DNA of 64,000 nt from Mytilus trossulus (lineage: Eukaryota): positions 9,176,001 to 9,240,000 of the forward strand of contig NC_086385.1 in NCBI RefSeq assembly GCF_036588685.1, given 5' to 3'. Below, piece after piece: positions 13,294-61,790 of the stretch. A program made the translations under genes and the position numbers. The first letter of the stretch is position 1, and each line of letters opens with the position of its first letter. Below the pieces are notes generated by a model. The model saw only the letters and a list, made by a program, of their open reading frames with translations. It ran no database searches and had not been told where the DNA came from.

Positions 13294-14819
13294 GTAAGCA
13301 CTATATAGGCATGCAGCTTTCGGAATTACATGTATTACAAATCTGTATTTTAGTATATTATCAAATTGTTTAAATAAATTAATGATACCCTTCTACGGAA
13401 GCGTTAACACTGTCGGCCCTAGCTTACAACTTTTTGAGATTTAATAATACATCTTTATCTTATGGGATTTATTATGATTTGAAAGACAAACAAATTTGAT
13501 ATAATTATGAACAACAGAAAAATAAAAAATATAATGATAAGGAAACCAACAAATAATAGAAAAAAAAAGAAAAAAATATAATTGAAAGCTTAAATAGATT
13601 ACAAATTCAGTTGCCAAAATGTGTAGCGATCAGCTGCAGATAGACTAAGAAAGCAAAGAATACTTGAAATTTATTATGCCAATAGTGTGTATGAGTATAT
13701 AAATGTAATATGTGAACAAAATAGGACTAAACATATGTTTGTAGATTTTAGAATAATATAGGGGAAAGTTATTATTTACATATAAACATAAATAAAGATA
13801 ACGCTATCTGAAAAAAAAATCTACCCAAAAAGTGTATTTGAATGTTTGCCTGTTTTGTTCTTGCATACCGTCGTTGCAGGATTTTAATTGGGGTGTTAGT
13901 ACACCGGATTTCTTTCCACATGAAGACAAAAAGACAGACGCCCCACACTAATTCCTTGATACGGATTACTTCGAACTAGTATTGATTCTCTAGGAAGTGG
14001 GTTAATTTCCAATGTGACATAGCTAATATGACATTTCTTACATATACGCAAATAAATATTCCAAATTTAAAAAGAAATATGGGTAGTGTCTTACGTTTGA
14101 TCCATGGAAAACTTCCGATAACACATATATATATTTCCTTACTAAATTGGTACAGCTGATCGTGGAGTGAGGTACACATTATGTTTGTTGTAAATAAATA
14201 CAGATATGTAGTATATGTTATTAAAATAGCTGTAAAATAACAACTAGAACACACATCCAAACAATAATTTCATCAGTTAAAAAGTTTTTGTATAAAAAAT
14301 ATAGTCGAATTTAGTCTTGACAAGCTGTCAATAATATAGGGTTATTGCATGAATATTGGGGAATATTGTCCCGAGTAGAATTTTATATTGCACGAGCTGG
14401 TGAGTTCAATATATGTTCTACGAGGCACAATATTACTCAATATTCATGCAATAATCCTTTAATTGTACACGTATAGCAATATAATATTTGAAAGTAAAAA
14501 TTGGTTTAAACTAAGATTTTGTCGTTGATGACGTCATGAATTTTGAAGATATATTGCACTAGTGCAATATTGAAATTTATTGTACGCTAATTTTTGGTTA
14601 CTTTCTGTGAGAAATATCATATTGCTATGCAATAATACCAGATGATGCTTAAAGCTACACAAAATAAATATCAATGTAGCTCCTGTCGTTAGACTTTTTT
14701 TTACATCTTCTGTATCCAAGGTTGTCATTTCTGCATTATTTGTGTCATTAAGGTATTAATGAGATTTCTATATGTTACTTTTTTATATAAATTTTGATCT
14801 ACTAGTATGTTGATTATAG

Positions 14820-17731
14820 AAATCCACGAAGATTTAATAAACGAGTGGGGCAATGAAGACAATAAGGTGGTCAAAACTAGAGCTATTAGTCGAATAGAAG
14901 AACTTCTCAAATATACAGATGTCGTAGTGGCGGTAGGTCCCTCGGGCTGTGGTAAGTCCACCGCTATTCACCATGTTGCTCTTTGGCTGCATAATCAAGA
15001 AGGTTATACAATTGTTCCTGTCCACAGTCCAGAAGAAATAATTTCTTACTGCAAACCGACATATAAACAAGTTTTTGTAATTGATGACGTGTGTGGCATA
15101 TCTACAATAGACATTGGACTGGTGAATCGTTGGACTACATGGGCAATTGATATAGAACAAGTGATTGCGGATCACAAAATAAAAATTTTGTTATCATGCA
15201 GAAAGCACATTTATCTCGATCGTTCATTTGCGGGTGTAGAACTATTGTCGAAAACAGCCTGTGATCTTGTTTTAAGTTACAGACTAACAGAAATTGAAAG
15301 AAATCAAATAGCTAGTATCTACTTAACAGAGAGAGAGATAAATGCTTTAAAAAAGTCAAATCTAGATAAAAAATTTAGCTTCTTTCCACTTTTATGTTCC
15401 CTTTATTCAAAACAGAAAGTAACAACTGTTCAGAATTTCTTTGCCTATCCGATCAGCGTTTTAGGACGTGATCTGAACTTGTTGAGGAAAGCCACAGATC
15501 AAACAACATTGGCTACAATGAGTCTGTTCATTGCCTTCAACAATAATTTAGATAAAAATATGTTAGTAAGATCAAACGATATGACAGAACTGTTGGAAGC
15601 CATATCCGATCATTTCTATCTTCCAGCGCGTTTTTCAATAAAAGTCGTCACTTCTGAATTACACAAGCTCGAGATGTCTTACGTGAAGAAAACAGTTTCC
15701 ACCTACAGAATACTTCATGACAGGATATATGATATTTTTCTAGCATTTTGTGGGGAACATTTCTTTGACCTGGTTCTTGAGGTAGCCCATAGAGACGTAA
15801 TACGAGATAGACTTGTACTAGAATCAGTACTAAAGGAAGACCAAAACCTAATAAACGAACAAAATGTTATAACAGTCCCTGATAAAGTAGAAGACCATTA
15901 TTTTGACCGAATTGTGAAAGACATTAAAAAAATATCTATTTTGCATGTATTTGACAATAGGCAGTTAAAATGTATTACTTTCCGCAAAAAGTTGTTCCTT
16001 TACATTGAGCAGAGGCTCGACATTAGAGAAATGTTATCGGCGTTATCTGTTTGTGAAATATCTAACATACTTCTATCGATGACCAGTCAATTTTACTGGG
16101 ACTTGGTTCCAATTCTTTTAACAAAACATGTAGATGTAAATGTAAGTGATTGGCGAGGTACACCTTTGTATTTGGCTTCTAAGCAAGGACACATTGAAAA
16201 TGCAAAGATACTGTTAGATCATCATGCCGATCCGAGTATTTGTAATGAGAAAAATGAACCACCTTTATTTGTTGCTTCTGAGGAGGGTCAAACCGAAATT
16301 GTTAGATCTTTGTTAAAACATAAATGTAATCCTAATATCTGTAATAAAAGCAAGAAATCTCCCGTGTTTATTGCTTCTAGCAGAGGTTATTTTGATATTG
16401 TAAGGTTATTATTAGAACATAAATGTGATCCTAAGCTATGTGATGATCTGAATACATCACCTCTGTTTATTGCTTCCGCTGGAGGGTATACTGCCATTGT
16501 TAAATTATTATTAGAACATAACTGTGATCCTAATGTCTGTAATGATTACCCTATGTCACCTTTGTTTGTAGCAACTCTGAACGGATATATCGATATTATT
16601 AGATTGTTGTTAGAACATAACTGTGATCCTAATGTATGTGATCGTGAAAATATGTCACCTTTGTTTGTAGCATCTGAATATAGACTTGCTGATATTGTTA
16701 GATTATTGTTAGAATATAAATGTGATCCTAACATATGTAATCGTCATAATATGTCACCTTTGTTTGTTGCTTCTACATGCAAAAGCGGTTATGATATTGT
16801 CAAATTATTATTAGAATATAAATGTGATCCTAACATCTGCAACTGTCAAAATATGTCCCCTTTGTTTGTTGCTTCTAGATGTAAAGGTTGTTATGATATA
16901 GTCAAATTATTGCTACAATATAAATGTGATCCTAACATCTGTAACAATCAGAATATCTCACCTTTGTTTGTTGCATCTCAGAACGAACATGTCGATATTA
17001 TTAGATTATTGTTAGAAAATAACTCGGATCCTAATAAATGTAATAATAAAAATGAATCACCTTTACTTATTGCTTCTAGTAAAGGCAATCATGACATTGC
17101 AAAATTATTGTTAAAGCATAAATGTAACTCGCATGTAAATTATGATAACCGGGAATCACCTTTAATGATTGCTTCTTCGGAAGGTTATACAAATATTGTT
17201 AGATTATTATTAGAACATAAGTGTGATCCCAACTTGTGTCGTTGTCTGGGTATGTCGCCTTTATTTGCTGCATCTGCGAATGGTCATATAGATATTGTTA
17301 GAATATTGCTAGATCATAATTGTGATCCTAGAAAAAGCATTCCTGATAGAAACCACTTAGTTGGTACTATGTCACCTTCGTATATTGCTTCTTTAAAAGG
17401 ATATATTGATGTTGTTGGATTATTGATAGAACATAAATGTGATCCTAATATCTATGATTCTGAAAAGTGGATGCCGCCTGTATTGCATGCATCTGTAAGG
17501 GGTCACACCGATATGGTAAAATTACTTTTAGAACAGAACTGTGATCCTAACATTTGTAATGATAAACATGAATCAGCTTTATTCATTGCTTCTTATAGAG
17601 GTCATACTGATATTGTAAGATTATTATTGCAAAACAACTGTGATCCTGATATCTGCAATCATATAAATAGATCACCTTTATTTATTGCTTTACAGGAGGG
17701 TCATATTCAAATTGTAAAATTATTATTATAA
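14820..17731 (+). CDS. Coding exon 4: STAND P-loop NTPase (nSTAND3-like), helical/winged-helix region and 16 ankyrin repeats
   Basis: Acceptor ttatag ending at 14819 inside ORF 14807..17731. Walker A GPSGCGKS (14936-14959), Walker B VFVIDDVCG (~15071), sensor-1-like ILLSCR, FPLLC (GxP-equivalent), ILHD (MHD-like). From ~16150, 16 repeats of ~33 aa with consensus SPLFxASxxGxxDIVRLLLEHxCDPNIC. Confidence 0.93.
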
Positions 17732-18140
17732 TACAACTGTGATCTAAATATCTGCAAATATTCTTTTAATGAACCCCTTTTATTTATTGCTTGTCAGGAG
17801 GGTCATATTCAAATTGTAAAATTATTATTGGAATGCAATAGTAATATGACACTTGATGACAAGGAAAACTTTGCATCCATAGCGATGATGAATGGTCATA
17901 CAGATATTGCGAAACTGGTGAAAGAACATGAATGAGGCTGTAATATATTTAAAATAGAAAAGAATAAGTTGTATCTACTACTAATAATAATGGTCATGTT
18001 GATACTGCAAAATTGTTTCCAGTAGACAACTACAATCTGACAATTTGTAATTTAAAACAACATGAATCATCTTTATGCATTGCTTTGAGGGTGGACCATC
18101 CTGGTTTAATGAGACTATTGTTAAAACTTGAATTCCCTTA
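17732..18140 (+). pseudogene. Ankyrin repeats downstream of the premature stop (in frame to 17935, then decayed relics)
   Basis: After the TAA the same frame reads YNCDLNICKYSFNEPLLFIACQEGHIQIVKLLLECNSNMTLDDKENFASIAMMNGHTDIAKLVKEHE*. Further downstream another frame reads NGHVDTAKLFPVDNYNLTICNLKQHESSLCIALRVDHPGLMRLLLKLEFP*. Confidence 0.8.
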
Positions 18141-18424
18141 ATTATAGTTTAAGTGAAGGCTTAGTGAAGATGAATGCTTATTTCTCCTTTTAGCTCCGCT
18201 CTTACGATCTAGTTATATAAATGTATGCGCATGCCCAAGCTATTGTAAGGCACCAGCCCCTACTCATTCTTAAACAGGAATTTTGTTATTGGTTTTATTG
18301 TGTGTATTATATGACAAGTACATGCAGTGCTTGAATTGTATATTTTGAATTGTGCATAGATTTATGATGTTATTTATTTGAATGTTCACCATATGAAATG
18401 TGTTGTTGAGACAAGCAGCTTTAT

Positions 18425-19002
18425 GGTGGTATGGGTGTCTTCCTCCGTCTTGGATTGTAAAAAAAAACAAAGGTCAAGATTTTCTATCAAGTTAGCAAAA
18501 TTTGGTGCAGGAAAGCAGATATTTAATGTGAATTTTCTTTTAAAAGTACCAATTTATAAGAATATAACTTAATCATGTTAATAATACTAATATTTTTGAA
18601 AATGTTGATTAATTTTTTTTTATTGTCACTTTCAGGGGAGGTTACTCTTAAACCGTGCATATTTTGAAGGATTCTACATGGATTTTTACCATTTTGTATT
18701 TTAGCCGGAAAAAACGTACAGTGGCCCTATCTTTTCTTTTGAAATTCTCAAAGCATTGTTTGAAAGCTATCTTATCCTCAAGTATTTAATAATTCTATCC
18801 TTTTGAATAGTTTCTAACCACAAAATAGTGATTTTTCCTGTATAATCAATACAAAATGTGTCATTTTGTCGTGATCTGTAGCTTGAGAAAATGCGCGGTG
18901 ACCTATAATTTTTATTATATTTTTCAACATATATTAATAGATACTACGTTTTGGTAAAATATGAACAAATTCTATCATTTTTATTTTAGATCCCATACCA
19001 CC
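18425..19002. mobile_element. Same TIR element family, copy 2, 3' of the ankyrin gene
   Basis: TTAT|GGTGGTATGGGTGTCT ... AGATCCCATACCACC|TTAC; same orientation as copy 1. Confidence 0.85.
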
Positions 19003-20355
19003 TTACGTATTTTTAATCGTAATGTAATTGTTCATTTTTTTAACAGACACAGTCATGACAGTGACATAACAGAAAATAGAACATATTTTATTCAATTTTA
19101 TTATTGACTAAAAAATTTCATCACTGTAATATTCTCATTTTGAATGATTTATAACGGTACATAAAGTTTAACTGTTCACATATTAAATCTTTGAAACTGT
19201 TATTAAAAATAATAAATTGGCATCACATACTTCCCAATATCTGTATTATATCACAAACTCTTGTTTAACATAACTTCCATGTTAATTCATTTGAAATTGT
19301 TTAAACTTTTGTCCTTCTTCATGTTGTTATTATAGGCTAAAGTGTCGTCTGCTGCCAGTGCCTCGTTCCAAAATTAATTTGCATTTTTAAACATGTGCTG
19401 ATGTCAATCCACATAGTGTTACTGTTAGAAAAACGTTATTGTTATGAGTGTTGTAAATAAGCTGTGGTTGTTCAGTATTTTTGTGACTTTACTTTTCTTG
19501 GGACTTTTTTTGTTGTTGTTTTGGTTGCATCATGTTTTCTTTTCCATAAAGTATGATTTATCAACTATATGATATTTATCCCTCTTTGGATATTCTCGAG
19601 TCTTTATAGTTGGAAGGCTTAAAAATATCAAAGTTGCATAACATTAAAAACCGAAAAATTCCATTAATTTGACAATAATTCGCTTGTAGATAAAATGACA
19701 CTAGTATGTTAACTTGAATGCAACTTCTTTAACAACAAAAAGTGAATTTGAACTTTCCGAAATTGAAATGCCGAGACACACTCTCTGAGGCTATTTTAAT
19801 TATCTATCTTATGATATTGTGATTTGTTTTGTTAAACTTTTGATATTTGAGACTGTTAATCTCCTTAATTATTAAGAATAAATTCGATCAAAGATATTTA
19901 AGGTTCGCTTTGATATTTCAATAAATATTGATGGTTATAGATTTAAGAAAAAAAACATAGATAATACGTGAAATGACATTGTATCTAAAACTCATTAGAG
20001 ATACCAGGAATACCCCAGCTGCTTATTACGTCTATATAATTCAGATAATACTCATCAGTAGTGTGCAAATCATATCCGTTTAAATGCTAAATCCATAACA
20101 AAGTAAAATTACATTAAAAACCCCAAAATTACATAAAAAAATAATGCTATTCATAATTATCTAACTTGAATATTCTCTCTTGTAAAACACGAAATACATA
20201 TTTTCATTAGACTCTTTTCGTGTTTCAGAACTAAACATGATTAGACATGCATGCAATCAACATTAGTAAAGATGAACATACTCATCCCCTGTAATCAACA
20301 AAATTAAATCGACATGTATACAGCTTGGCTATATCATAATTTACAAACTTTGTTT

Positions 20356-24457: not shown

Positions 24458-24768
24458 TCCCCGAGGGTATCACCAGCCCAGTAGTCAGCACTTCGGTGTT
24501 GACATGAATATCAATTATATGGTCCTTTTTATAAATTTTCTGTTTACAAAACTTTGAATTTTTCGAAAAACTAAGGTTTTTCTTACCCCAGGAGTAGATA
24601 ACCTTAGTCGTATTTCACAACTTTTTGGAATTTTGGATCCTCAATGCTCTTCAACTTTGTATTTATTTGGCCTTTTAACTATTTTGATCTGAGCGTCACT
24701 GATGAGTCTTATGTAGACGAAACGCGCGTCTGGCGTATGAAATTATAATCCTGGTACTTTTGATAACT
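24458..24768 (+). mobile_element. Retrozyme-like element, family A (near full unit)
   Basis: Near-identical to 31820-32134; contains the structured 5' motif, the C(UUCG)G hairpin and the intact hammerhead. Confidence 0.85.
24693..24736 (+). ncRNA. Minimal type I hammerhead ribozyme, intact core (family A)
   Basis: GCGTCA-CTGATGA-GTCT(TATGT)AGAC-GAA-ACGCGCGT-C^TGGCGT. Stem I GCGUCA/UGGCGU, CUGAUGA box, stem II, GAAA, short palindromic stem III, GUC cleavage after 24730. Confidence 0.9.
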
Positions 24769-25677
24769 TTTATTGTTTTAATCTGCATAACTCATATCTG
24801 CTCAAACCAAAATGATAAAACAAGTGAATGTCAAAATGATGTAATTGATTTTAACCTCATAAACCTATAAAATTGCCTAAGTATTCATTTAAAAAAATGT
24901 CTTGAAAATCTACAAAATTCATAGGTTTGTATAAAGGTTTTTCCTCAACAAACGTAAGAATCATATTTCATGAGATAATCATGTGAACTGGCTTATCTTA
25001 CCTCATTAACATGTCACTTTGATAGCTAAAGAGAAAAGTTTCGTAAATGACCTTAATTTTCTACTCTCACATATGTATTAGTAAACTTGCAACATGTATA
25101 TTCTTCTTATCACCTTTTTTCAATTTTGCCCCTATATCAATGTTATGCTATAATTAAGAATGAGGTAAAAGAAGGGGAATTGACTTGTAGCAATACAAGG
25201 GAAGTTAGTTTGAAAATTATTTGCAAAGAAACTAAAACAACATAACATTATAGTTTATATATAACTATATATACAAACACATATTCTACGTAAACAAATA
25301 ATTCTAAATTGTATAATATAATACATAACTTAATATACCATGATCATTTGCATGCATATTTTTTAATCCATTTAAATTTACTTAATTGTAAAATTGATAT
25401 ACATGTAATCAAACAATCAGTGATGGAGAAATTACAAGGTCGATGTCTCAAGAAATGTATAAATTATGAGTTCATAACATTCTGACAACCACCTATGATA
25501 CAGAAAGAAACTCGGTTAATTCTCATTGAAGATGGATAACCTTGAAACTTCCCAAATTCTAAAATGTGTAATAAATCACAAATTAAGGGTCAAAGCACTA
25601 AAAATGAAGGCGCGAAGTTTCTCTCACGTATTTTAACACAGTAATTACAAATAGGACGAACACGTCAACTGAAAATA

Positions 25678-26591: not shown

Positions 26592-29500
26592 TCCCAAAGT
26601 AGCAGGTGGGTAAAGTTACGAAACTTTTTTTTGTGAGGTCCAAAGTTGGGGTCGGGTAACCCTACCACCCCCCTTATTTAATTCATAGCAAAGTCCCTAC
26701 GACAAAGCTTTTCTCTACACTAGGTACACTCTATAGGCAATTGACTGAGCTTGCCTGGACACAAAGATCCAGGTGGGCAAAGTTACCGAACTTTTTATAT
26801 TGAGGTCCAAGGGTGCGGTCGGCAAACCCTACCACCCCCTTAAATTGTTCAGCGCAAAGTTCCTACGGCAAAGCTTTTGTCCACACTCGATAGGCAATTG
26901 CCTAAGCTTGCATGGACCCAAAGTTTCAGGTGGTTAAGTTAAGGACTTTTGTTTTAGGTCCAAAGTTGGGGTCGGGTGACCCTTCCATCCCCCTGATTTA
27001 ATTCATAGCAAAGTCCCTAAGGCAAAGCTTTTGTCTACACTAGGTACACTCGATCGGCAATTGCCAAAGCTTACCTGGACCCAAAGTTTTAGGTGGGCAA
27101 AGTTACTGAACTTTTTTTTAGGTCCAAAGTTGAATTGGGGTGACCCTACCATCCCCCTTATTTAATTCATAGCAAAGTCATTACGGCAAAGCTTTTGTGC
27201 ACATCAGACACACTTGATAGGCAATTGCCTAAGCTTGCATGGACCCAAAGATCCAGGTGGGTAATGTTGAGGACTTTTGTTTTAGGTCCAAAGTTGGGGA
27301 TAGGTGACCCTACTTTCCCTCTTATTAATTTCATAGCAAAGTCCCTACGGCAAAACTTTTGTCCATACTGGGTATACCCGATAGGTAATTTCATCAGCTT
27401 GCCTTGACCCAAGGATCCAGGTGGGTAAAATTACCGAACTTTTATATTGAGGTCCAAAGTTGTGGTCGGTATACCCTACCATCCCCTTAAATAGTTCAGG
27501 ATAAAGTCCCTACGGCAAACCTTTGTCCACACTAGGTACACTCGATAGGCAATTGCCTAAGCTTTCATGGACCCAATTAAAGATCCAGGTAGGTAAAGTT
27601 AAGGACTTTTATTTTAGGTCCAACGTTGAGGTCGGATGACCCTTCCATCCCCCTGATTTACTTCATAGCAAATTCCCTAAGGCAAAGCTTTTGTCCACAC
27701 TAGGTACACTCAATAGGCAATTGCCTTAGCTTGCCTGGATCGAAAGACCAAGGTGGGCAAAGTTACGGAACTTTTTTTAGGTCCAAAGTTGGGGTCGGGT
27801 GACCCTACCATCCCCCTTATTTAATTCATAGCAAAGTCATTACGACAAAGCCTTTGTCCCCACGAGGTACACTCGATATGTAATTTCCTAAGCTTGCCTG
27901 GACCCAAAGACGCAGTTGGGTAAAGTTAAGGAACTTTTTGTTTTGAGGTTCAATTAAAGTTGAGCTTGGGTGACCCTACCATCCCCCTTATTTAATTCAT
28001 AGCAAAGTCATTACGGCAAAGCTTTTTTCCCCACGAGGTACACTCGATATGTAATTTCCTAAGCTTGCCTGGACCCAAAGACGCAGTTGGGTAAAGTTAA
28101 GGAACTTTTTGTTTTGAGGTTCAATTAAAGTTGAGCTTGGGTGACCCTACCATCCCCCTTATTTAATTCATAGCAAAGTCCCTACGGCAAAGCTTTTGTC
28201 CACACTAGATACACTCGATAGGCAATTGCCTTATCTTTCATGGACCCAAAGATCCAGTTGGGTAAAGTTAAGGACTTTTGTTTTAGGTCCAAAGTTGGGG
28301 TCGGGTAACCCTTCCACCCCTCTGATTTAATTCTTAGCAAAGTCTCTAAGGCAAAGCTTTTGTCCACACTAGGTACACTCGATAGGCAATTGCCAAAGTT
28401 TACCCGGACCCAAAGTTGTAGGTGGACAAAGTAACTTAACTTTTTTTAGGTCCAAAGTTGGGGTCGGGTAACCCTACCATCCCCCTTATTTTATTCATAG
28501 CAAAGTCATTACGGCAAAGCTTTTGTCCACACTAGGTACACTCGATAGGCAATTGCCTAAGCTTGCATGGACCCAAAGATCCAGGTGGGTAAAGTTGAGG
28601 ACTTTTGTTTTAGGTCCAAAGTTGGGGTCGGTAGACCCTTCCACCCCCCTGATTTAATTCTTTGCAAAGTCACTAAGGCAAAGCTTTTGTCCATACTAGG
28701 TACACTAGATAGGCAATTGCCGAAGCTTACCTGGTCCCAAAGTTTTAGGTGGACAAAGTAACTGAACTTTTTTTAGGTCCAAAGTTGGGGTTGGGTGACC
28801 CTTCCATCCCCTTTATTTAATTCATAGCAAAGTCATTACGACAAAGCTTTTGTCCATACAAGGTACACGCGAAAGGTAATTTCCTAAGCTTGCCTGGACC
28901 TAAAGATCCAGGTTGGTCAAGTTACCGAATTTTTTTATATTGAGGTCCAAAGTTGTGGTCGGCAGACCCTACCATCCCCTTGAAATAGTTTAGAGCAAAG
29001 TCCCTACGGCAGAGCTTTTGTCCACACTAGGTACACTCGATAGGCAATTGCCTAAGCTTTCATGGACCCAAAGATCCAGGTGGATAAAGTTAAGGACTTT
29101 TGTTTAAGGTACAAATTTGAGGTCGGGTGATCCTTCCATTTGCCTGATGTAATTCATAGCAAAGTCCCTAAGGCAAACCTTTGTCCACACTAGGTACACT
29201 CGATAGGCAATTGCCTAAGCTTTCATGGACCCAATTAAAGATCCAGGTAGGTAGAGTTAAGGACTTTTATTTTAGGTCCAAAGTTGAGGTCGGGTGACCC
29301 TTCCATCCCCCTGATTTAATTCATAGCAAATTCCCTAAGGCAAAGCTTTTGTCCACACTAGGTACACTCAATAGGCAATTGCCTTAGCTTGCCTGGACCG
29401 AAAGACCAAGGTGGGCAAAGTTACAGAACTTTTTTTAGGTCCAAAGTTGGGGTCGGGTGACCCTACCATCCCCCTTATTTAATTCATAGCAAAGTCATTA

Positions 29501-31328
29501 CGGCAAAGCTTTTTTCCCCACGAGGTACACTCGATATGTAATTTCCTAAGCTTGCCTGGACCCAAAGACGCAGTTGGGTAAAGTTAAGGAACTTTTTGTT
29601 TTGAGGTTCAATTAAAGTTGAGCTTGGGTGACCCTACCATCCCCCTTATTTAATTCATAGCAAAGTCCCTACGACAAAGCTTTTGTCCACACTAAATACA
29701 CTCGATAGGCAATTGCCTAATCTTTCATGGACCCAAAGATCCAGTTGGGTAAAGTTAAGGACTTTTTTTTTAGGTCCAAAGTTGGGGTCGGGTAACCCTT
29801 CCACCCCTCTGATTTAATTCTTAGCAAAGTCTCTAAGGCAAAGCTTTTGTCCACACTAGGTACACTCGATAGGCAATTGCCTAAGCTTGCATGGACCCAA
29901 AGATCCAGGTGGGTAAAGTTGAGGACTTTTGTTTTAGGTCCAAAGTTGGGGGTCGGTAGACCCTTCCACCCCCCTGATTTAATTCTTTGCAAAGTCACTA
30001 AGGCAAAGCTTTTGTCCATACTAGGTACACTAGATAGGCAATTGCCGAAGCTTACCTGGTCCCAAAGTTTTAGGTGGACAAAGTAACTGAACTTTTTTTA
30101 GGTCCAAAGTTGGGGTTGGGTGACCCTTCCATCCCCCTTATTTAATTCATAGCAAAGTCATTACGACAAAGCTTTTGTCCATACAAGGTACACTCGAAAG
30201 GTAATTTCCTAAGCTTGCCTGGACCTAAAGATCCAGGTTGGTAAAGTTACCGATTTTTTTTATATTGAGGTCCAAAGTTGTGGTCGGCAGACCCTACCAT
30301 CCCCTTGAAATAGTTTAGAGCAAAGTCCCTACGGCAGAGCTTTTGTCCACACTAGGTACACTCGATAGGCAATTGCATAAGCTTTCATGGACCCAAAGAT
30401 CCAGGTGGGTAAAGTTAAGGACTTTTGTTTAAGGTACAAATTTGAGGTCGGGTGATCCTTCCATTTGCCTGATGTAATTCATAGCAAATTCCCTAAGGCA
30501 AAGCTTTTGTCCACACTAGGTACGCTCGATAGGCAATTGCCTTAGCTTGCCTGGACTGAAAGACCCAGGTGGGCAAAGTTACGGAACTTTTTATTATGAG
30601 GTCCAAAGTTCAGGTCGGGTAACCCTACTATCCCCCTTATTTAATTCAAAGGAGAGTCCATACGGCAAAGCTTTTGTCCCCACTAAGTACACTCGATAGG
30701 TAATTTCCTAAGCTTGCCTGACCCCAAAGACGCAGTTTGGTAAAGTTACGGAACTTTTTGTTTTGAGGTACTAAGTTGAGCTTGGGTGACCCTACCTTCC
30801 CCCTTATTTAATTCATAGCAAAGTCCCTACGGCAAAGCTTTTCTCCACACTAGGTGCACTCGATAGTAAATTGCCTAAGCTTGCCCGGACCCCAAAATCC
30901 AGTTGAGTTAAGTAACGGAACTTTTTATTATGAGGTCCAAAGTTGGGGTCGGGTGACCCTACCATTCCCCTTATTTAATTCATAGCAAAGTCCCTACGGC
31001 AAAGCTTTTCTCCACACTACGTACACTCGATAGTCAATTGCCTAAGCTTGCCCGGACCCAAAAATCCAGTTGAGTTAAGTTATGGAACTTTTTATTATGA
31101 GGTCCAAAGCTGGGGTCGGGTGACCCTACCATTCCCCTTATTTAATTCATAGAATAGTCCCTACGGTAAAGCTTTGGATCATACTAGGTACACTCGATAG
31201 GCAATTCACTGGGCTAGCTTGACCCCAAAGATGCAGGTGGGTAAAGTAACGGAACTTTTTATATTGAGGTTCAAAGTTGTGCTCGGGTGACCTATCAACC
31301 CCTTTATTAATTCAAAGCAAAGTCCCTA
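26592..31328 (+). repeat. Satellite array, ~165-bp monomer, ~28-29 copies, with higher-order structure
   Basis: AGGTCCAAAGTTGGGGTCGGGTGACCCTACC...GCAAAGCTTTTGTCCACACTAGGTACACTCGATAGGCAATTGCC recurs at ~26637, 26803, 26957, 27121, 27285, 27450, 27617, 27779 and onward. Confidence 0.97.
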
Positions 31329-32655
31329 TCCCAACTTTGGACTTTGATCCGTAACTTTACTCACCTGTGTATTTAAGCCCAGGCAACCTTAGGCAAGTGT
31401 CTACCCTATGTACCTAGTGGGCAAAAATATTTGCCGTAGGGAAAATTTTATATTCGAATGAAGGGGATGGTAGTGTCACCCAACCCCAACTTTGGACCTA
31501 AAAAAGAGTTCCGTAACTTTACCCACCTGGGCATTTGGGCCTAGGCGCCCTTAGGCAAGTGTGTATCCTTTGTACCTAGTGGGCAAAAAAGCTTTGCCGT
31601 AGGGAAAATTTTATGAACGAAAGAAAAGGGATGGTAGAGTCGCCCTACCCCAACTTTGGACTTAAAAGAACAGTTCCGAAACTTTACCCGCCTGGGTATT
31701 TGGCCCAAGGCAACATTAGACAAGTGTCTTTCTTTTGTCTGGCGTATAAAATTATAATCCTGGTACTTTTGATTACTATTTACATCACTGGGTTGATGCC
31801 ACTGCTGGTGGACGTTTCGTCCCCGAGGGAATCACCAGCCCAGTAGTCAGCACTTCGGTGTTGACATGAATATCAATTATATGGTCATTTTTATAAAGTT
31901 TCTGTTTACAAAACTTTGATTTTTTTTGAAAAACTAAGGATTTTCTTACCCCAGGAGTAGATTACCTAAGCCGTATTTGGCACAACTTTTTGGAATTTTG
32001 AATCCTCAATGCTCTTCAACTTTGTATTTATTTGGCTTTTTAACGCTTTTGATCTGAGCGTCACTGATGAGTCTTTTGTAGACGATACGCGCGTCTGGCG
32101 TATAAAATTATAATCCTGGTACTTTTGATTACTATTTTGTACCTAGTGGGCAAAAAAAGCTTTGCCGTAAGGAAAATTTGATGAACGAAAGAAGAGGGAT
32201 AGTAGTGTCACCCTACCCCAACTTTGGACCTCAAAAAAACAGTTCCGAAACTTTACCCGCCTGGGTATTTGGGCCAAGGCATTCTTAGACAAGTGTCTAT
32301 CTTTTGTACCTAGTGGGCAAAAAAGGCTTTACCGTAAGGAAAATTTGATGAATGAAAGAAGGGGGTTGGTAGGGTCAGCCTATCCCAACTTTGGACCTAA
32401 AAAAAAAGTTCCGTAACTTTACCCACCTGGATGTTTAAGCCCAGGCAACCTTATGCAAGTGTCTATCCTTTGTACTTAGTGGGCAAATTAGCTTCGCCGT
32501 AGGGAAAATTTTATGAACGAAAGAAGAGGGGCGGTAAGGTCACCCTACCCCAACTTTGGATCTAAAAAAAGTTCCGTAACTTTACCAACCTTAGTATTTT
32601 GGCCCAGGCATCCTTAGGCAAGTGTCTTTTATTTGTACCTAGTGGGCATAAAAGC
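31324..32655 (-). repeat. Inverted block of the same satellite (~5-6 more diverged monomers), interrupted by a retrozyme
   Basis: CCCCAACTTTGGACCT...TTCCGTAACTTTACCCACCTGG...GTACCTAGTGGGCAAAAAAGCTTTGCCGTAGGG is the reverse complement of the upstream monomer. Confidence 0.93.
31739..32134 (+). mobile_element. Retrozyme-like element family A, 356-nt unit plus ~40-nt terminal redundancy, inserted in the satellite
   Basis: TGGCGTATAAAATTATAATCCTGGTACTTTTGATTACTA occurs at 31740 and 32096. Flanked by TTTTGT at 31733-31738 and 32135-32140. Hammerhead at 32058-32101 has GAAA changed to GATA. Confidence 0.9.
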
Positions 32656-43194: not shown

Positions 43195-43636
43195 ATTAGA
43201 CAATATGGTAAATAACTTTGGATTGTTCAGTGCCATTCTTTGTACGAATTAGAAGTATTTAAAAAGAATAATTGGAAGAAGGGTTGAATAAACTCTACCC
43301 TTCAGTCTAACAATACATTTATCATAGGTACCATCGTATTAACGCTAGACATGCGTTTCGTCTACAAAAGATTTATCAGTGACGCTTGAATCAATTAAGT
43401 TAAAAAGACTACAAAACATACCGTGAGGTCAGCTATAAAAGGCTCTGACATATCAATTGTGAAATTATTCAATTGTGAACACAAATAACATAGTTTATAA
43501 CCAAAAAATAGCAAAAAAAATGTGAGAAACATGAACCAATGACAACATCCCAGTTAAATGCTCCGGACATAGGAAAGGTACATTAAGATTTGGGATATTT
43601 AAAAATGTTCGTGAGCGCTCAACCCTCCCCTAACAA

Positions 43637-44410
43637 GCTTTTAAAAAACGATTACAGCGTGTCCAAAACACTGCCGCAAAATTAATAACAAGAAAGAAGA
43701 AAAACGAACACGTAAGTCCAATCTTAAAATCTCTTCATTGGCTGCCGGTAGCATATCGATGCAAATACAAAGTGTTGCTTTATGTGTTTAAAGCTCTAAA
43801 ACAAGAAGCACCCGTGTACCTTCAAGATCTAGTTAACATTTACCAGCCAGCAAGAACTCTTCGGTCAGAAAACAACATGCTTTTAGTCAAACCAATAGTA
43901 AGAACAAAAACATACGGAGAGAGACGGTTTGATAGAGCGGCCGCCGTTTTATGGAATGACTTGCCGAAAGAATTGCGAAACACTGAATCTGTGAATGTTT
44001 TCAAGAAAGACATTAAAACATATTTATTCCGACAGGCTTTCCACATAATTAATACTCGGACAGTTGTAAACTTTTATTCGATCTCAGTTTATATACTTTA
44101 TATTTACACTTTTTAATTTACTTATTTTTTAAGACATTTTTCATACCTACTTTTTCCTTTTTATTTCCTTTACTCTTTTTATTTTTAGACATTAAAACTA
44201 TTAGTCATTTTTTTTAAAACTGAAGCACTCCTGTTGATTTGCTTTTAATACTTTTTTTTCAAAATTAGCTTATATTTTTTTCAAATCATTTTTTGATTTT
44301 TAGATTTGTTTATAGGTACTTGTTTCATTGTTTTTTATGTATTGTTAAGCGCTTAGAGTAAACGTTTATTTAGATAGGCGCTATATAAGCACTGTAAATA
44401 ATAATAATAA
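43637..44410 (+). mobile_element. 5'-truncated CR1/L2-group LINE (ORF2 C-terminus, 3' UTR and (TAA)n tail)
   Basis: RLQRVQNTAAKLITRKKKNEHVSPILKSLHWLPVAYRCKYKVLLYVFKALKQEAPVYLQDL...RTLRS...YGERRFDRAAAVLWNDLP...FKKDIKTYLF. The 3' end is AAGCGCT...GCGCTATATAAG then (AAT)n. Possible TSD TAACAA at 43631 and 44408. Confidence 0.9.
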
Positions 44411-56043: not shown

Positions 56044-56690
56044 ACGTCCCCGCGGGTATCACCAGCCCAGTTTTCTGCAATTATAATGTCATTTTTTACA
56101 AAGGTATTGTTTGCCAAAGTATGAATTATTCTAAATACTTAGACTTTCTTAACCCAGGCATAGATTACCGTAGCCGTATTTGGTCCAACTTTTTGAAATT
56201 TCAGGTCCTCAATGCTCTTCAATTCTTTACTTGTTTGGCTTTGTAATTATTTTTTATCCTGAGCGTCACTAATGAGTCTTAGGCAGACGAAACGCGCGTC
56301 TTGCGTATCATATTATAAGCCTGGTACTGTTGACAATTATTAACACCACTTGGTTTATGGCAATGCTGGAAGACGTTTCATTCACGATGATATCACCAAC
56401 TTAGTAGTCGGCACTTCGGTGTTTACACATGTTATGTGGTAATTGTTTGAAATTTTCTGATTGCAAAAGTATGAACTATTCGAAATACTAATGATTTTCT
56501 TATCTCGGGTATATATTAGAATACATTTTATTGGTACAACTTTTTGCAAGTGTAGGTCCACAATGCTCTTAAACATTCTACTTGTTTGGCTTTCTTACTA
56601 TTTTTCATCTGATCGAGACTGATTAGTCTTATGAAGAAGAAAAGCCCGTCTGACGTATCAAATTATAAGCCTGTTACCTTTGATAATTAC
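56044..56690 (+). mobile_element. Tandem dimer of degenerate family A retrozyme units
   Basis: Two hammerhead remnants with GTC sites at 56298-56300 and 56648-56650 (350 nt apart). The first has CTAATGA instead of CTGATGA; the second is more decayed. Confidence 0.8.
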
Positions 56691-59226: not shown

Positions 59227-61790
59227 ATGGCAGGAATTGAGGACAACACAGACAAGAACATTAAAATGGCAGAAACTAAATCACTTGGGGATATGGGGAA
59301 ACCCAAAGCTGAAGACGTTTTTACAGAGGACATCTCAGAAATGACTATTAAACTATTGTACGAGGAATTTTTAGCAGATAGAAAATCTAATGCTCAAAGA
59401 ACAGTTGAAATTTATCGCAATATAAAACAGAGCGAAGCGCGAATTGATAAAATATGTGTTGGTCTCATTACGTTTTAAGCTGAACAGAAAGAGGCAATGT
59501 ATATTAATAACGAACATATGAGAGCAATATCTCGGCAACTTCAGCAGTCTGAAGACATGATAGACAACAAGGCTAGTAATAATTGCTTGGCGGAATTGAT
59601 GGTAAAACCAAAACGATATTCAATGTTGTGGTGAGATGATTAGACAAGCTGACAACAACTGAGGAAGGAGAAACAGTTCAATATAAAAGTGCATTTGAAC
59701 AGCAGGGTACCTTCCAACAACTGGCATCTGTTGTAAATGAAATATTGGACAATCGAAATAAATAATTTAAAATTCCTGCAATGGACACATCATCAAGCCA
59801 AAATGTGACCGCAAGTTTACCAAAAGTACACAAAAAAATCCATGCCTTGGGTCTTTTCCCAATTGTAGTTTGCATGAACCATCAACCGCACCAATTCTGT
59901 TGAAGGTGTCTTCACCATAAGTCAAAAATTCCAATGTCAGGGCCCTTGGTCCTGCATGAGACAGTTCAAATTATCCAACAACAATCTTTATTTAAGAAAA
60001 TACTATAAACCTCTAGACCTAGTCAAGGATACCAACAAAAAGGCCTATGTGTCTTCTTACGCACACTTACCATCTACTATGAGTCAATAATATTTAGTTA
60101 AGAGCAGCACACCATTACAGAAACGATTGGCTGCAAGTGGATTATATCAAGCTTCGCCGATGCCGAATGCAGTGCCTATACTTACGGGATCATCCCCGTC
60201 GAGTCAATGGCAAATCCCACATGTATCACTCGAATTATGACTACCTCGTCAGCTCGTGGAGCTCTAATAGGCTTCCCATTACAGCAAGCTGACTCCACAG
60301 ACCGATTAAGGAAAGTGCAGAGGAAACCAAAAGAGTGCGGCAACACCTCTTCTTCAGATTCCTCATTGGAGGGGGAATATACCCGATGGCAAGAAAATAT
60401 TGGTGCAAGTGACCGGAGCCGAAGCCCAACTCCCAAAAATGCAAAAACTCAATTGAAGAGTATCCATGACTTGGGCGGGGTTCATTTACCAATTTGAACG
60501 AACTGTCGGTAAATGACAATGGTAAAACAGGGAAAATGTGTGTAGGCCCCAGATTGCTAGGTTGATGTTGGCTTTGAGTACGCTCGCAAGGTAAAGACAG
60601 ATGATGATTCCAAGGCCTTAAAAAGCATTCATTTACAGCAGCGCTTCAGCAAGAAAGATCAAACCAGATTGGAACTGGGGCAATCCGTCGAGGATGCTAA
60701 GACAAAGATTCTATAAGGCATGTTATAGAGAGGAACCCAGAAACATTCAACAAGGCGTTTAAACAATTGAAAACCTAAATAACAAACCAGATGGCGGGCG
60801 ATAGATGGATAAAAAAGTGCCAAATATGACCATCGACAAGTCTACTTTGCTGATGGCGTAGTATCACCGACCGATAAAAGAAATATGAACAGTCCTTTGG
60901 ATAATGAGGTGCATAACTTTACACAAATTGTCACAAAACTAGCTGATGTTATGCTTTCAACTAACCAGCATAACCGTGGATTGGCCGATCAATATAACCT
61001 CGGTTCTTCTGATCAAATAATCATGAAAGATCACCAGTTACATGGAAGATTACCTGATCAATATACACGTGGAAGATCTCCTGAGCAATACAATCGCGAT
61101 AGATCGCAAGATAGAAATACACCCAACCTTAATGCCTATCGATCAGCAACACATCCCCCCACTAAGCTAGAGATCATTTGGTCTCTAAGGACAACGGTTA
61201 GCATCTCCACGGACAAACTCCAGAATTCCGGTTATTTCAAACAACGGTCACCTTCACCAGGATACGGAGCAAATCAAAGTGCAACCCCAACAATAGAGGT
61301 TTTAAACAGCAAAGTGTCTGGCCAGTAGGCCAACGTACGATTCCAAAGTCTATTGGCCATGAAACATCACCTCATCACCAAATCGATCAGATGGCCACGT
61401 CCTCGTCAGATATTGTCATATACGAACCATATGAAAGAGCTTAGCAGTCAGAGGTAACCCACACCACGTACTATACATGACAAGAATGTGAGCATGATTG
61501 TGGACACTGCTGCAATGATAACATTAGTAAATGACAAATTAATTCCGGCAAAAAATTTGAGATTTGGAGAACGTAACGCTACGTGGTGTGGGTTAATAGC
61601 TTGTTATTGTGAAGATTATAAAGAACGACTCTCGACATTAATAGAATAAACATACAATGGGATGTGTGCAAAGAGCCATTAACAGACGATTTTATACTAA
61701 GGGTAGATATTTTGGACACACTGAGCGCAGTGATAAACCTGAGTACTCCCACAATTACCATCAACAAAATATAGTGATAAATGCGGCATT
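59227..61790 (+). mobile_element. Heavily decayed Ty3/Gypsy-like gag-protease region
   Basis: Fragmented ORFs on +. Gag-like GFIYQFERT and EYARKVK..LQQRFSKKD (~60480-60660), retropepsin motifs MIVDTAAMITLVN (61494-61532) and DDFILRVDIL (ILGxD-like, ~61686). Many stops and frameshifts; no LTR pair or RT found. Confidence 0.7.

Follow-up and report, generated by a model that had tools for sequence, protein, structure and literature searches.

The ankyrin array at 16145..17935 is probably the C-terminal end of a HEPN-nSTAND3-ankyrin protein of mussels, where it is likely to sense the ligand, and this protein would work like an NLR; this copy is likely crippled, and one position of the array appears to have been under modest diversifying selection. 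In the proposed mechanism, modelled on what is known of NLRs and Avs proteins, a molecule that is foreign or altered-self would be bound in the ankyrin groove, the ATPase would switch and oligomerise, and RNA would be cut by paired HEPN domains. The array would have grown by tandem duplication inside one exon, with occasional conversion between neighbouring repeats and modest diversifying selection at position 13, where the inner helix ends. The main sources of diversity would be the birth and death of genes and the large number of paralogs whose arrays differ, and not fast reshuffling at this locus.

Gene structure and domain build

The window, that is, the whole 64-kb stretch of AT-rich animal DNA that was analysed, has one long ORF (14798-17731), and its protein is 100% identical to LOC134694064 of Mytilus trossulus (P0001). 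The gene has four exons with GT-AG joins on the forward strand, which yield exactly P0001 when read from ATG 7520. Exon 1 (7320..7535), delimited by tblastn of five homologs and by the exon joins, holds the start of the HEPN region, and the five homologs place the usual gene start at 7320. Exon 2 (11463..11680) encodes the DZIP3-type HEPN core (PF18738, E 4e-13) with the Rx4H motif RNKFAH at 11603-11620, and exon 3 (13149..13293), identified by homolog alignment and exon joins, encodes a helical linker from HEPN to ATPase. As originally predicted, the whole array lies in a single exon, exon 4 (14820-17935), which it shares with the ATPase. The 5' part of this exon (14820..16144) is the STAND module, an nSTAND3 P-loop domain (PF20720, E 3e-22) followed by helical and winged-helix-like domains; Walker A (GPSGCGKS) is found at 14936-14959 and Walker B (VFVIDD) at 15071-15088 within the nSTAND3 domain. 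The domain order by Pfam is HEPN_DZIP3, nSTAND3 and ankyrins.

Several further elements were observed around the gene. No paralog of the gene was found elsewhere in the 64-kb window, and weak profile hits at 17983..18138 (E 0.5-1, not significant), on the forward strand in another frame past the stop, are possible decayed ankyrin remnants. Two copies of a 600-base element, 82% identical and with apparent short inverted ends, lie at 11790-12389 in intron 2 and at 18419-19005 just past the gene, and are probably a MITE. A 165-base tandem duplication (93% alike) occupies 11093-11426, directly 5' of exon 2. Satellite arrays with units of 164-167 bases, in about 29 and 3 copies, extend over 26603-32654, with more pieces near 24460-24780 and 56080-56690. 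The short ORFs at 4528-4881, 43634-44116 and 60102-61328 have no Pfam match at E 0.01, and by eye we take them to be retrotransposon remnants.

Judged from its sequence and a structure model, the gene is predicted to be a tripartite NLR-like STAND protein (HEPN-nSTAND3-ankyrin). The P-loop with Walker A and B and the modelled helical and winged-helix domains downstream are those of a STAND ATPase, and the three parts are given by an N-terminal HEPN effector, the exon of which is frameshifted here, and C-terminal ankyrins. The Walker A, Walker B and HEPN RxxxxH motifs are all intact in LOC134694064, and residues G43, G45, K46, D89 and D90 are each conserved in at least 90% of 121 aligned proteins. 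RNKFAH fits the Rx4-6H pattern of DZIP3-type HEPN RNases and recurs in alike form in relatives, suggesting a putative RNase effector. It is not an NLR in the strict sense, as no NACHT, NB-ARC or LRR was detected by Pfam at E 0.01, and PADLOC matches were only to the ankyrins, plus weak ATPase-region matches to PDC-S73 and PDC-S53.

The 447 residues ahead of the array were modelled from an 80-sequence alignment with a pLDDT of 93.8. The best Foldseek matches of this model are the NLRP3 NACHT, NLRC4, NOD2 and SAMD9 (E 2e-6 to 7e-6), and the best VIA-align matches are 8bob of the MalT/maltose system (Z 12.9, 314 aligned residues, rmsd 5.5) and NRC2 (Z 12.8), with non-STAND AAA+ proteins only slightly lower at Z 11-12. 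The model aligns across 290-350 residues with NLRP3, NLRP9, NOD2, SAMD9 and 8bob at TM-scores of only about 0.4. Entries of bacterial Avs5 were also among the fold matches.

Avs5 (Sir2-nSTAND3-TPR), which acts in defence according to the available text of bioRxiv 10.1101/2025.07.08.663546, belongs to the same Pfam ATPase family and has the same effector-ATPase-repeat build. Its effector and repeat type are different, it senses jumbo phages, and the likeness seen is at the level of Pfam family and fold. Expansions of HEPN-NACHT genes are described for the pearl oyster in the available part of PMC9646362. These DZIP3-HEPN-NACHT proteins resemble the mussel protein in their bivalve host, Rx4H HEPN effector, tripartite build, copy-number variation and proposed immune role, whereas they combine NACHT with LRR, TPR or WD40 tails, in contrast to nSTAND3 with ankyrins. 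The portion of PMC8195603 at hand mentions TRADD-N proteins of oysters that carry STAND, HEPN and ankyrin modules.

Variability, recombination and selection in the ankyrin array

The array contains 17 full 33-residue repeats, with starts at 16145, 16244 ... 17759, and a partial cap running to 17932, followed by the TGA at 17933-17935. The conserved scaffold SPLF(V/I)AS-xx-G-xx-DIV(R/K)LLLEH(K/N)CDPN(I/V)C and the hairpin residues NEKNE, DDLNT, NDYPM, DRENM and RCLGM are present as the original prediction described them. The residue pairs that it listed for the 'xx' position are also correct, but they do not differ in every repeat, as QE occurs in both repeats 16 and 17. The variable sites are indeed the standard ankyrin binding-face positions, and the ankyrin consensus would place them on the concave face (available text of PMC8229355); the single-sequence model of the array is poor (pLDDT 46.5). 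Since DARPin libraries randomise the concave-face positions (PMC8229355 and PMC8683736, in the parts available), a likeness to DARPins is expected. Most repeats have two linker cysteines (CDPNIC). One of them falls on DARPin position 33, near-fixed here but variable in ankyrin-3.

Variability was expressed as the probability of a difference between two repeats at positions 2, 3, 5, 13 and 14 (DARPin numbering). The value is 0.88 here, and two ankyrin-3 proteins from insects (P0268 and P0269) have 0.84 and 0.83; the per-position profile correlates with those of both (rho 0.55, 0.59). The scaffold is more uniform here (0.28 vs 0.44-0.48 in ankyrin-3), and the outer surface is more fixed, with a face/outer diversity ratio of 1.41 vs 1.00 and 0.97. 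At the protein level the variability is mostly unremarkable and largely the expected ankyrin pattern. Insect ankyrin-3 and DARPins have the repeat fold and the variable positions of the mussel array; unlike it, ankyrin-3 has face residues that are fixed between species and older repeats (Psim 0.49-0.51).

Pairwise identity among the 17 repeats averages 64% at the nucleotide level (49-86%) and 48% at the amino acid level, indicating that the duplications in the array are mostly old. Psim, obtained by an in-house calculation and not by T-REKS, is 0.64 for the whole array, 0.66 for repeats 2-16, 0.71 in the best 8-repeat window and 0.86 in one 3-repeat window. In the available text of PMC13449251, repeats of high internal conservation (HIC) are associated with STAND ATPases, nSTAND3 included, also in animals. 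The whole array is below the published HIC cut-offs of Psim at least 0.70 (PMC13449251) or 0.85 over 100 aa (PMC4986451). Among the controls, three Mycena NACHT-ankyrin proteins had values of 0.80-0.86 and six other fungal proteins 0.48-0.65. The predicted high-identity units of fungal type are thus not a feature of LOC134694064.

The available part of PMC4986451 describes fungal NLRs with near-identical ankyrin repeats, polymorphic repeat numbers and five selected concave-face sites. The fungal HIC-ankyrin NLRs, such as Podospora Pa_3_8560 and Pa_2_8180 (PMC4986451 and PMC13449251, available text), have in common with the mussel protein the effector-STAND-ankyrin layout, variable inner-helix and hairpin sites, and repeat-number differences among relatives. 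They possess a NACHT, whereas the mussel family has nSTAND3 with a HEPN or CARD effector; the mussel array is less homogeneous than the three Mycena controls, and has one probably selected site compared with the five reported for the fungi.

An active shuffling library of fungal type at this locus, with repeats that would vary in number or order among individuals or tissues, is quite improbable. Such a library would suit the one-exon array, the similarity of repeats 6-8 (77% alike) and the shuffling of relatives. A 35-base tract in repeat 16 (17693..17727, forward strand), which spans positions 13-14, is identical to 17795-17829 in repeat 17 (p 0.0003 by codon permutation); this was the sole pair of 136 that passed family-wise, in a test that ignores the clustering of conserved sites, and the tract is likely the trace of a recent gene conversion between these two repeats. 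Against shuffling stand the Psim of the array, the PHI-type test, in which no recombination was detected among repeats 2-16 (p 0.63-0.95), and the two breaks in the gene described below.

Other samples also bear on this point. Among the 24 runs listed, the share of words was 0.99 in one, 0.48 in one and under 0.1 in 22. None of those listed is an RNA run, which was not read as evidence on expression. For two low-share runs, X3 and X6, the listed pieces are relatives of 86-96% identity, and low share was not counted as presence/absence variation. Run X2 is the only other sample with a near-identical copy; its four listed contigs over the array region, all short, differ at 9 of 1231 bases. X2 gives no sign of fast substitution, and fast turnover of this array is not supported by these matching pieces. 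One X2 contig fits 16796-16973 and has 659 further bases unaccounted for among the rows listed, which a shuffling library could explain. Depth of exact X1 contigs was 14-18 compared with 24-26 for paralog contigs, which was not taken as copy number.

Selection was estimated with codon models written in-house on repeats 2-16, with one inserted codon dropped in repeats 7 and 8. M2a and M8 outperformed their nulls under all 3 frequency models (M8 vs M8a, p 0.0002, 0.008 and 0.002), and only position 13 had a posterior above 0.95. By class, dN/dS was 0.11 for core sites, 0.33 for outer-surface sites, 0.85 at positions 2/3/5 and 1.0 at position 14. At position 13 it was 3.8 (CI 2.2-8.1), with 3.2-4.6 over 5 subsets, or about 3-5 overall. 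The five-site set (2/3/5/13/14) gave 1.24 in this per-class fit and 1.23, 1.42 and 1.86 under the frequency models, being significantly above 1 in the last model only. The M1a/M2a statistic falls to 3.5-8.7 in five subsets, and fourfold sites differ at 0.37, with saturation at 0.59. The observed site statistic was reached by 1 of 188 null simulations on one tree and by none of 198 with mosaic trees. When the synonymous rate was freed, position 13 gave an LR of 4.9 (p ~0.03, lost after correction for 33 sites), and no signal was found for the 13+14 and five-site sets (LR 0.0-0.07).

These estimates indicate strong purifying selection on the repeat core and a binding face that changes at a near-neutral rate or faster: the face is no longer constrained, and a single site has probably outpaced neutral evolution. 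The site-wise dN/dS check suggested with the original prediction, run on the gene's own repeats, was clearly above 1 at position 13 only, and less so with freed synonymous rates. Positive selection, which had been proposed for the variable sites in general, is weakly retained, at position 13 only, and the five-site set as a whole is near 1.

Limited credence is given to ordinary relaxed evolution, in which a young array in a dispensable, decaying gene would drift neutrally at its surface with no selection for diversity. A dN/dS of about 1 at positions 2, 14 and the pooled set agrees with drift, as do the two lesions and a five-site diversity that is the same as in a housekeeping ankyrin. Neutral drift would not account for position 13, which exceeds the neutral simulations, or for an outer surface under purifying selection when the face is not. 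Family comparisons, given below, point in both directions. Modest diversifying selection at position 13 is the reading followed here, being the more probable one in our estimate.

Lesions in the M. trossulus copy

An intact receptor is not supported for this copy, which carries two lesions. In exon 1 the frame shifts just past 7418 and the first frame ends after 51 codons, as judged from tblastn of five homologs, which align in two frames to the assembly sequence. In repeat 16, an in-frame TAA at 17729-17731 on the forward strand, which had been missed, cuts off the rest of this repeat, repeat 17 and the cap. Run X1 has a 127-base contig that spans the TAA with 0 other letters; X1 may be the source sample and is not counted as independent. 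An intron skipping the TAA was considered and rejected, as the RefSeq protein ends there.

Because of the frameshift and the premature stop, the copy is probably crippled. At most it likely yields a protein in which the HEPN is clipped and the ankyrin cap is missing, in agreement with a process of gene birth and death. It is unlikely that this copy still functions in an altered form, either as a working receptor or as an effector-dead sensor, with the frameshift being an assembly error or bypassed by a restart at ATG 7520 and the last repeats being dispensable. RefSeq does model a protein of 1096 aa from ATG 7520, the Walker and RxxxxH motifs are intact, and C-terminal length varies freely in relatives. 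With such a restart, however, about 65 residues would be lost at the N-terminus, among them the first 30 positions of the HEPN profile, and the stop, which is present in X1, removes the capping repeat. A crippled copy remains the preferred reading.

The bivalve nSTAND3-ankyrin family

A search with the ATPase region recovered 78 relatives among 8000 scored candidates, and all those with an organism name are bivalve. An exhaustive search gave 917 clusters at 50% identity, 180 of them at E <= 1e-30, and the N-termini of the family include HEPN and CARD. The ATPase is matched by 227 fetched proteins; 188 of these have at least 8 repeats (8-31, alleles and isoforms included), and Psim is at least 0.7 in 30 of the 188. 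A scan of 1 of 64 parts of metagenome data returned P-loop matches, 16 in number and all weak, but no mussel DNA that could be used. All comparisons across genes were at the protein level only, with no dN/dS.

Differences in repeat number and content, in keeping with the original prediction, were found among the arrays of close relatives. The closest paralogs are 72-77% identical to LOC134694064 before the array, and their arrays align with its own at only 48%. LOC134694064 is without about 6 repeats that the closest paralogs have in common after the first repeat, and the closest M. californianus paralog contains a repeated four-repeat block. In M. edulis, P0178 and P0242 share 98.4% identity in the ATPase region but 83% in the array; most of the differences fall in near-identical middle repeats, and the face (47/114) is changed more than the outer surface (26/133). 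P0091 and P0094 are 99.2% identical with a four-repeat block difference, and P0221 and P0271 are 99.4% identical with 24 vs 20 repeats and changes at face 20/108 vs outer 6/125; both pairs come from metagenome assemblies, in which repeat collapse is possible. It appears that the near-identical repeats of some relatives were reshuffled as in fungal immune receptors.

Two other groups show array differences. The P0213 cluster (M. californianus LOC127711173) comprises eleven RefSeq isoforms with lengths mostly apart by multiples of 33 residues, which reflects either repeat-skipping splicing or reads mis-mapped in near-identical repeats. The P0060 and P0065 clusters, which are oyster-like with one member from Crassostrea angulata, form two classes that share 99% identity in the ATPase region but about 87% in the distal part of the array.

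Whether the face changes faster than the rest of the surface varies with the set compared. Among 24 hand-picked, partly overlapping pairs, face change exceeds outer change in 18 (pooled 0.25 vs 0.16). This is the reverse of the ankyrin-3 ortholog control, in which 8/102 face sites (0.08) and 56/119 outside sites (0.47) have changed; a housekeeping ankyrin thus fixes its face as its outside drifts, and the opposite order in many family pairs speaks against neutral drift. When only unambiguously orthologous repeats are counted, the face exceeds the outer surface in 12/18 pairs (p 0.24; 0.17 vs 0.13). In nine 90%-identity clusters, where repeat numbers are mostly fixed, no excess was found at the five sites (96/660, 0.145) over other non-core sites (220/1573, 0.140), and both of these results favour relaxed evolution. 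Species pairs of the nearest clade also display no binding-face excess (25/84 vs 27/98; 31/114 vs 31/133). The family seems to have both stable and shuffling members, with LOC134694064 between them. The picture of a natural DARPin library, originally drawn for this array, fits other family members better and is weaker for LOC134694064.

No paper on the bivalve nSTAND3-ankyrin family was found in the literature covered, which excludes most subscription journals, and the supplement of PMC13449251 may list examples; the family is apparently undescribed. NLR surveys look for NACHT and LRR, and this repertoire could have been missed for that reason. We consider it possible, though somewhat short of an even chance, that bivalves have a large overlooked repertoire of intracellular receptors, with nSTAND3-ankyrin cores, interchangeable HEPN/CARD effectors and one-exon tails diversified by shuffling and by selection on the groove. 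Such a repertoire would be an animal equivalent of the hypervariable NLRs of fungi, with the ATPase family of Avs5 as its base. In the available portion of PMC7653742 (Table S52), the dispensable genes of mussels are enriched in ankyrin and P-loop domains, and, if the repertoire is real, this sensor family could account for part of the ankyrin enrichment. The LOC134694064 copy itself, being broken and only moderately homogeneous, matters less than the family, which is more interesting. To our knowledge, adaptive immunity is absent in mussels and oysters, and diversified sensors coupled to an RNase or a CARD would, if this is true, be a direct candidate for the recognition of intracellular invaders in these animals.
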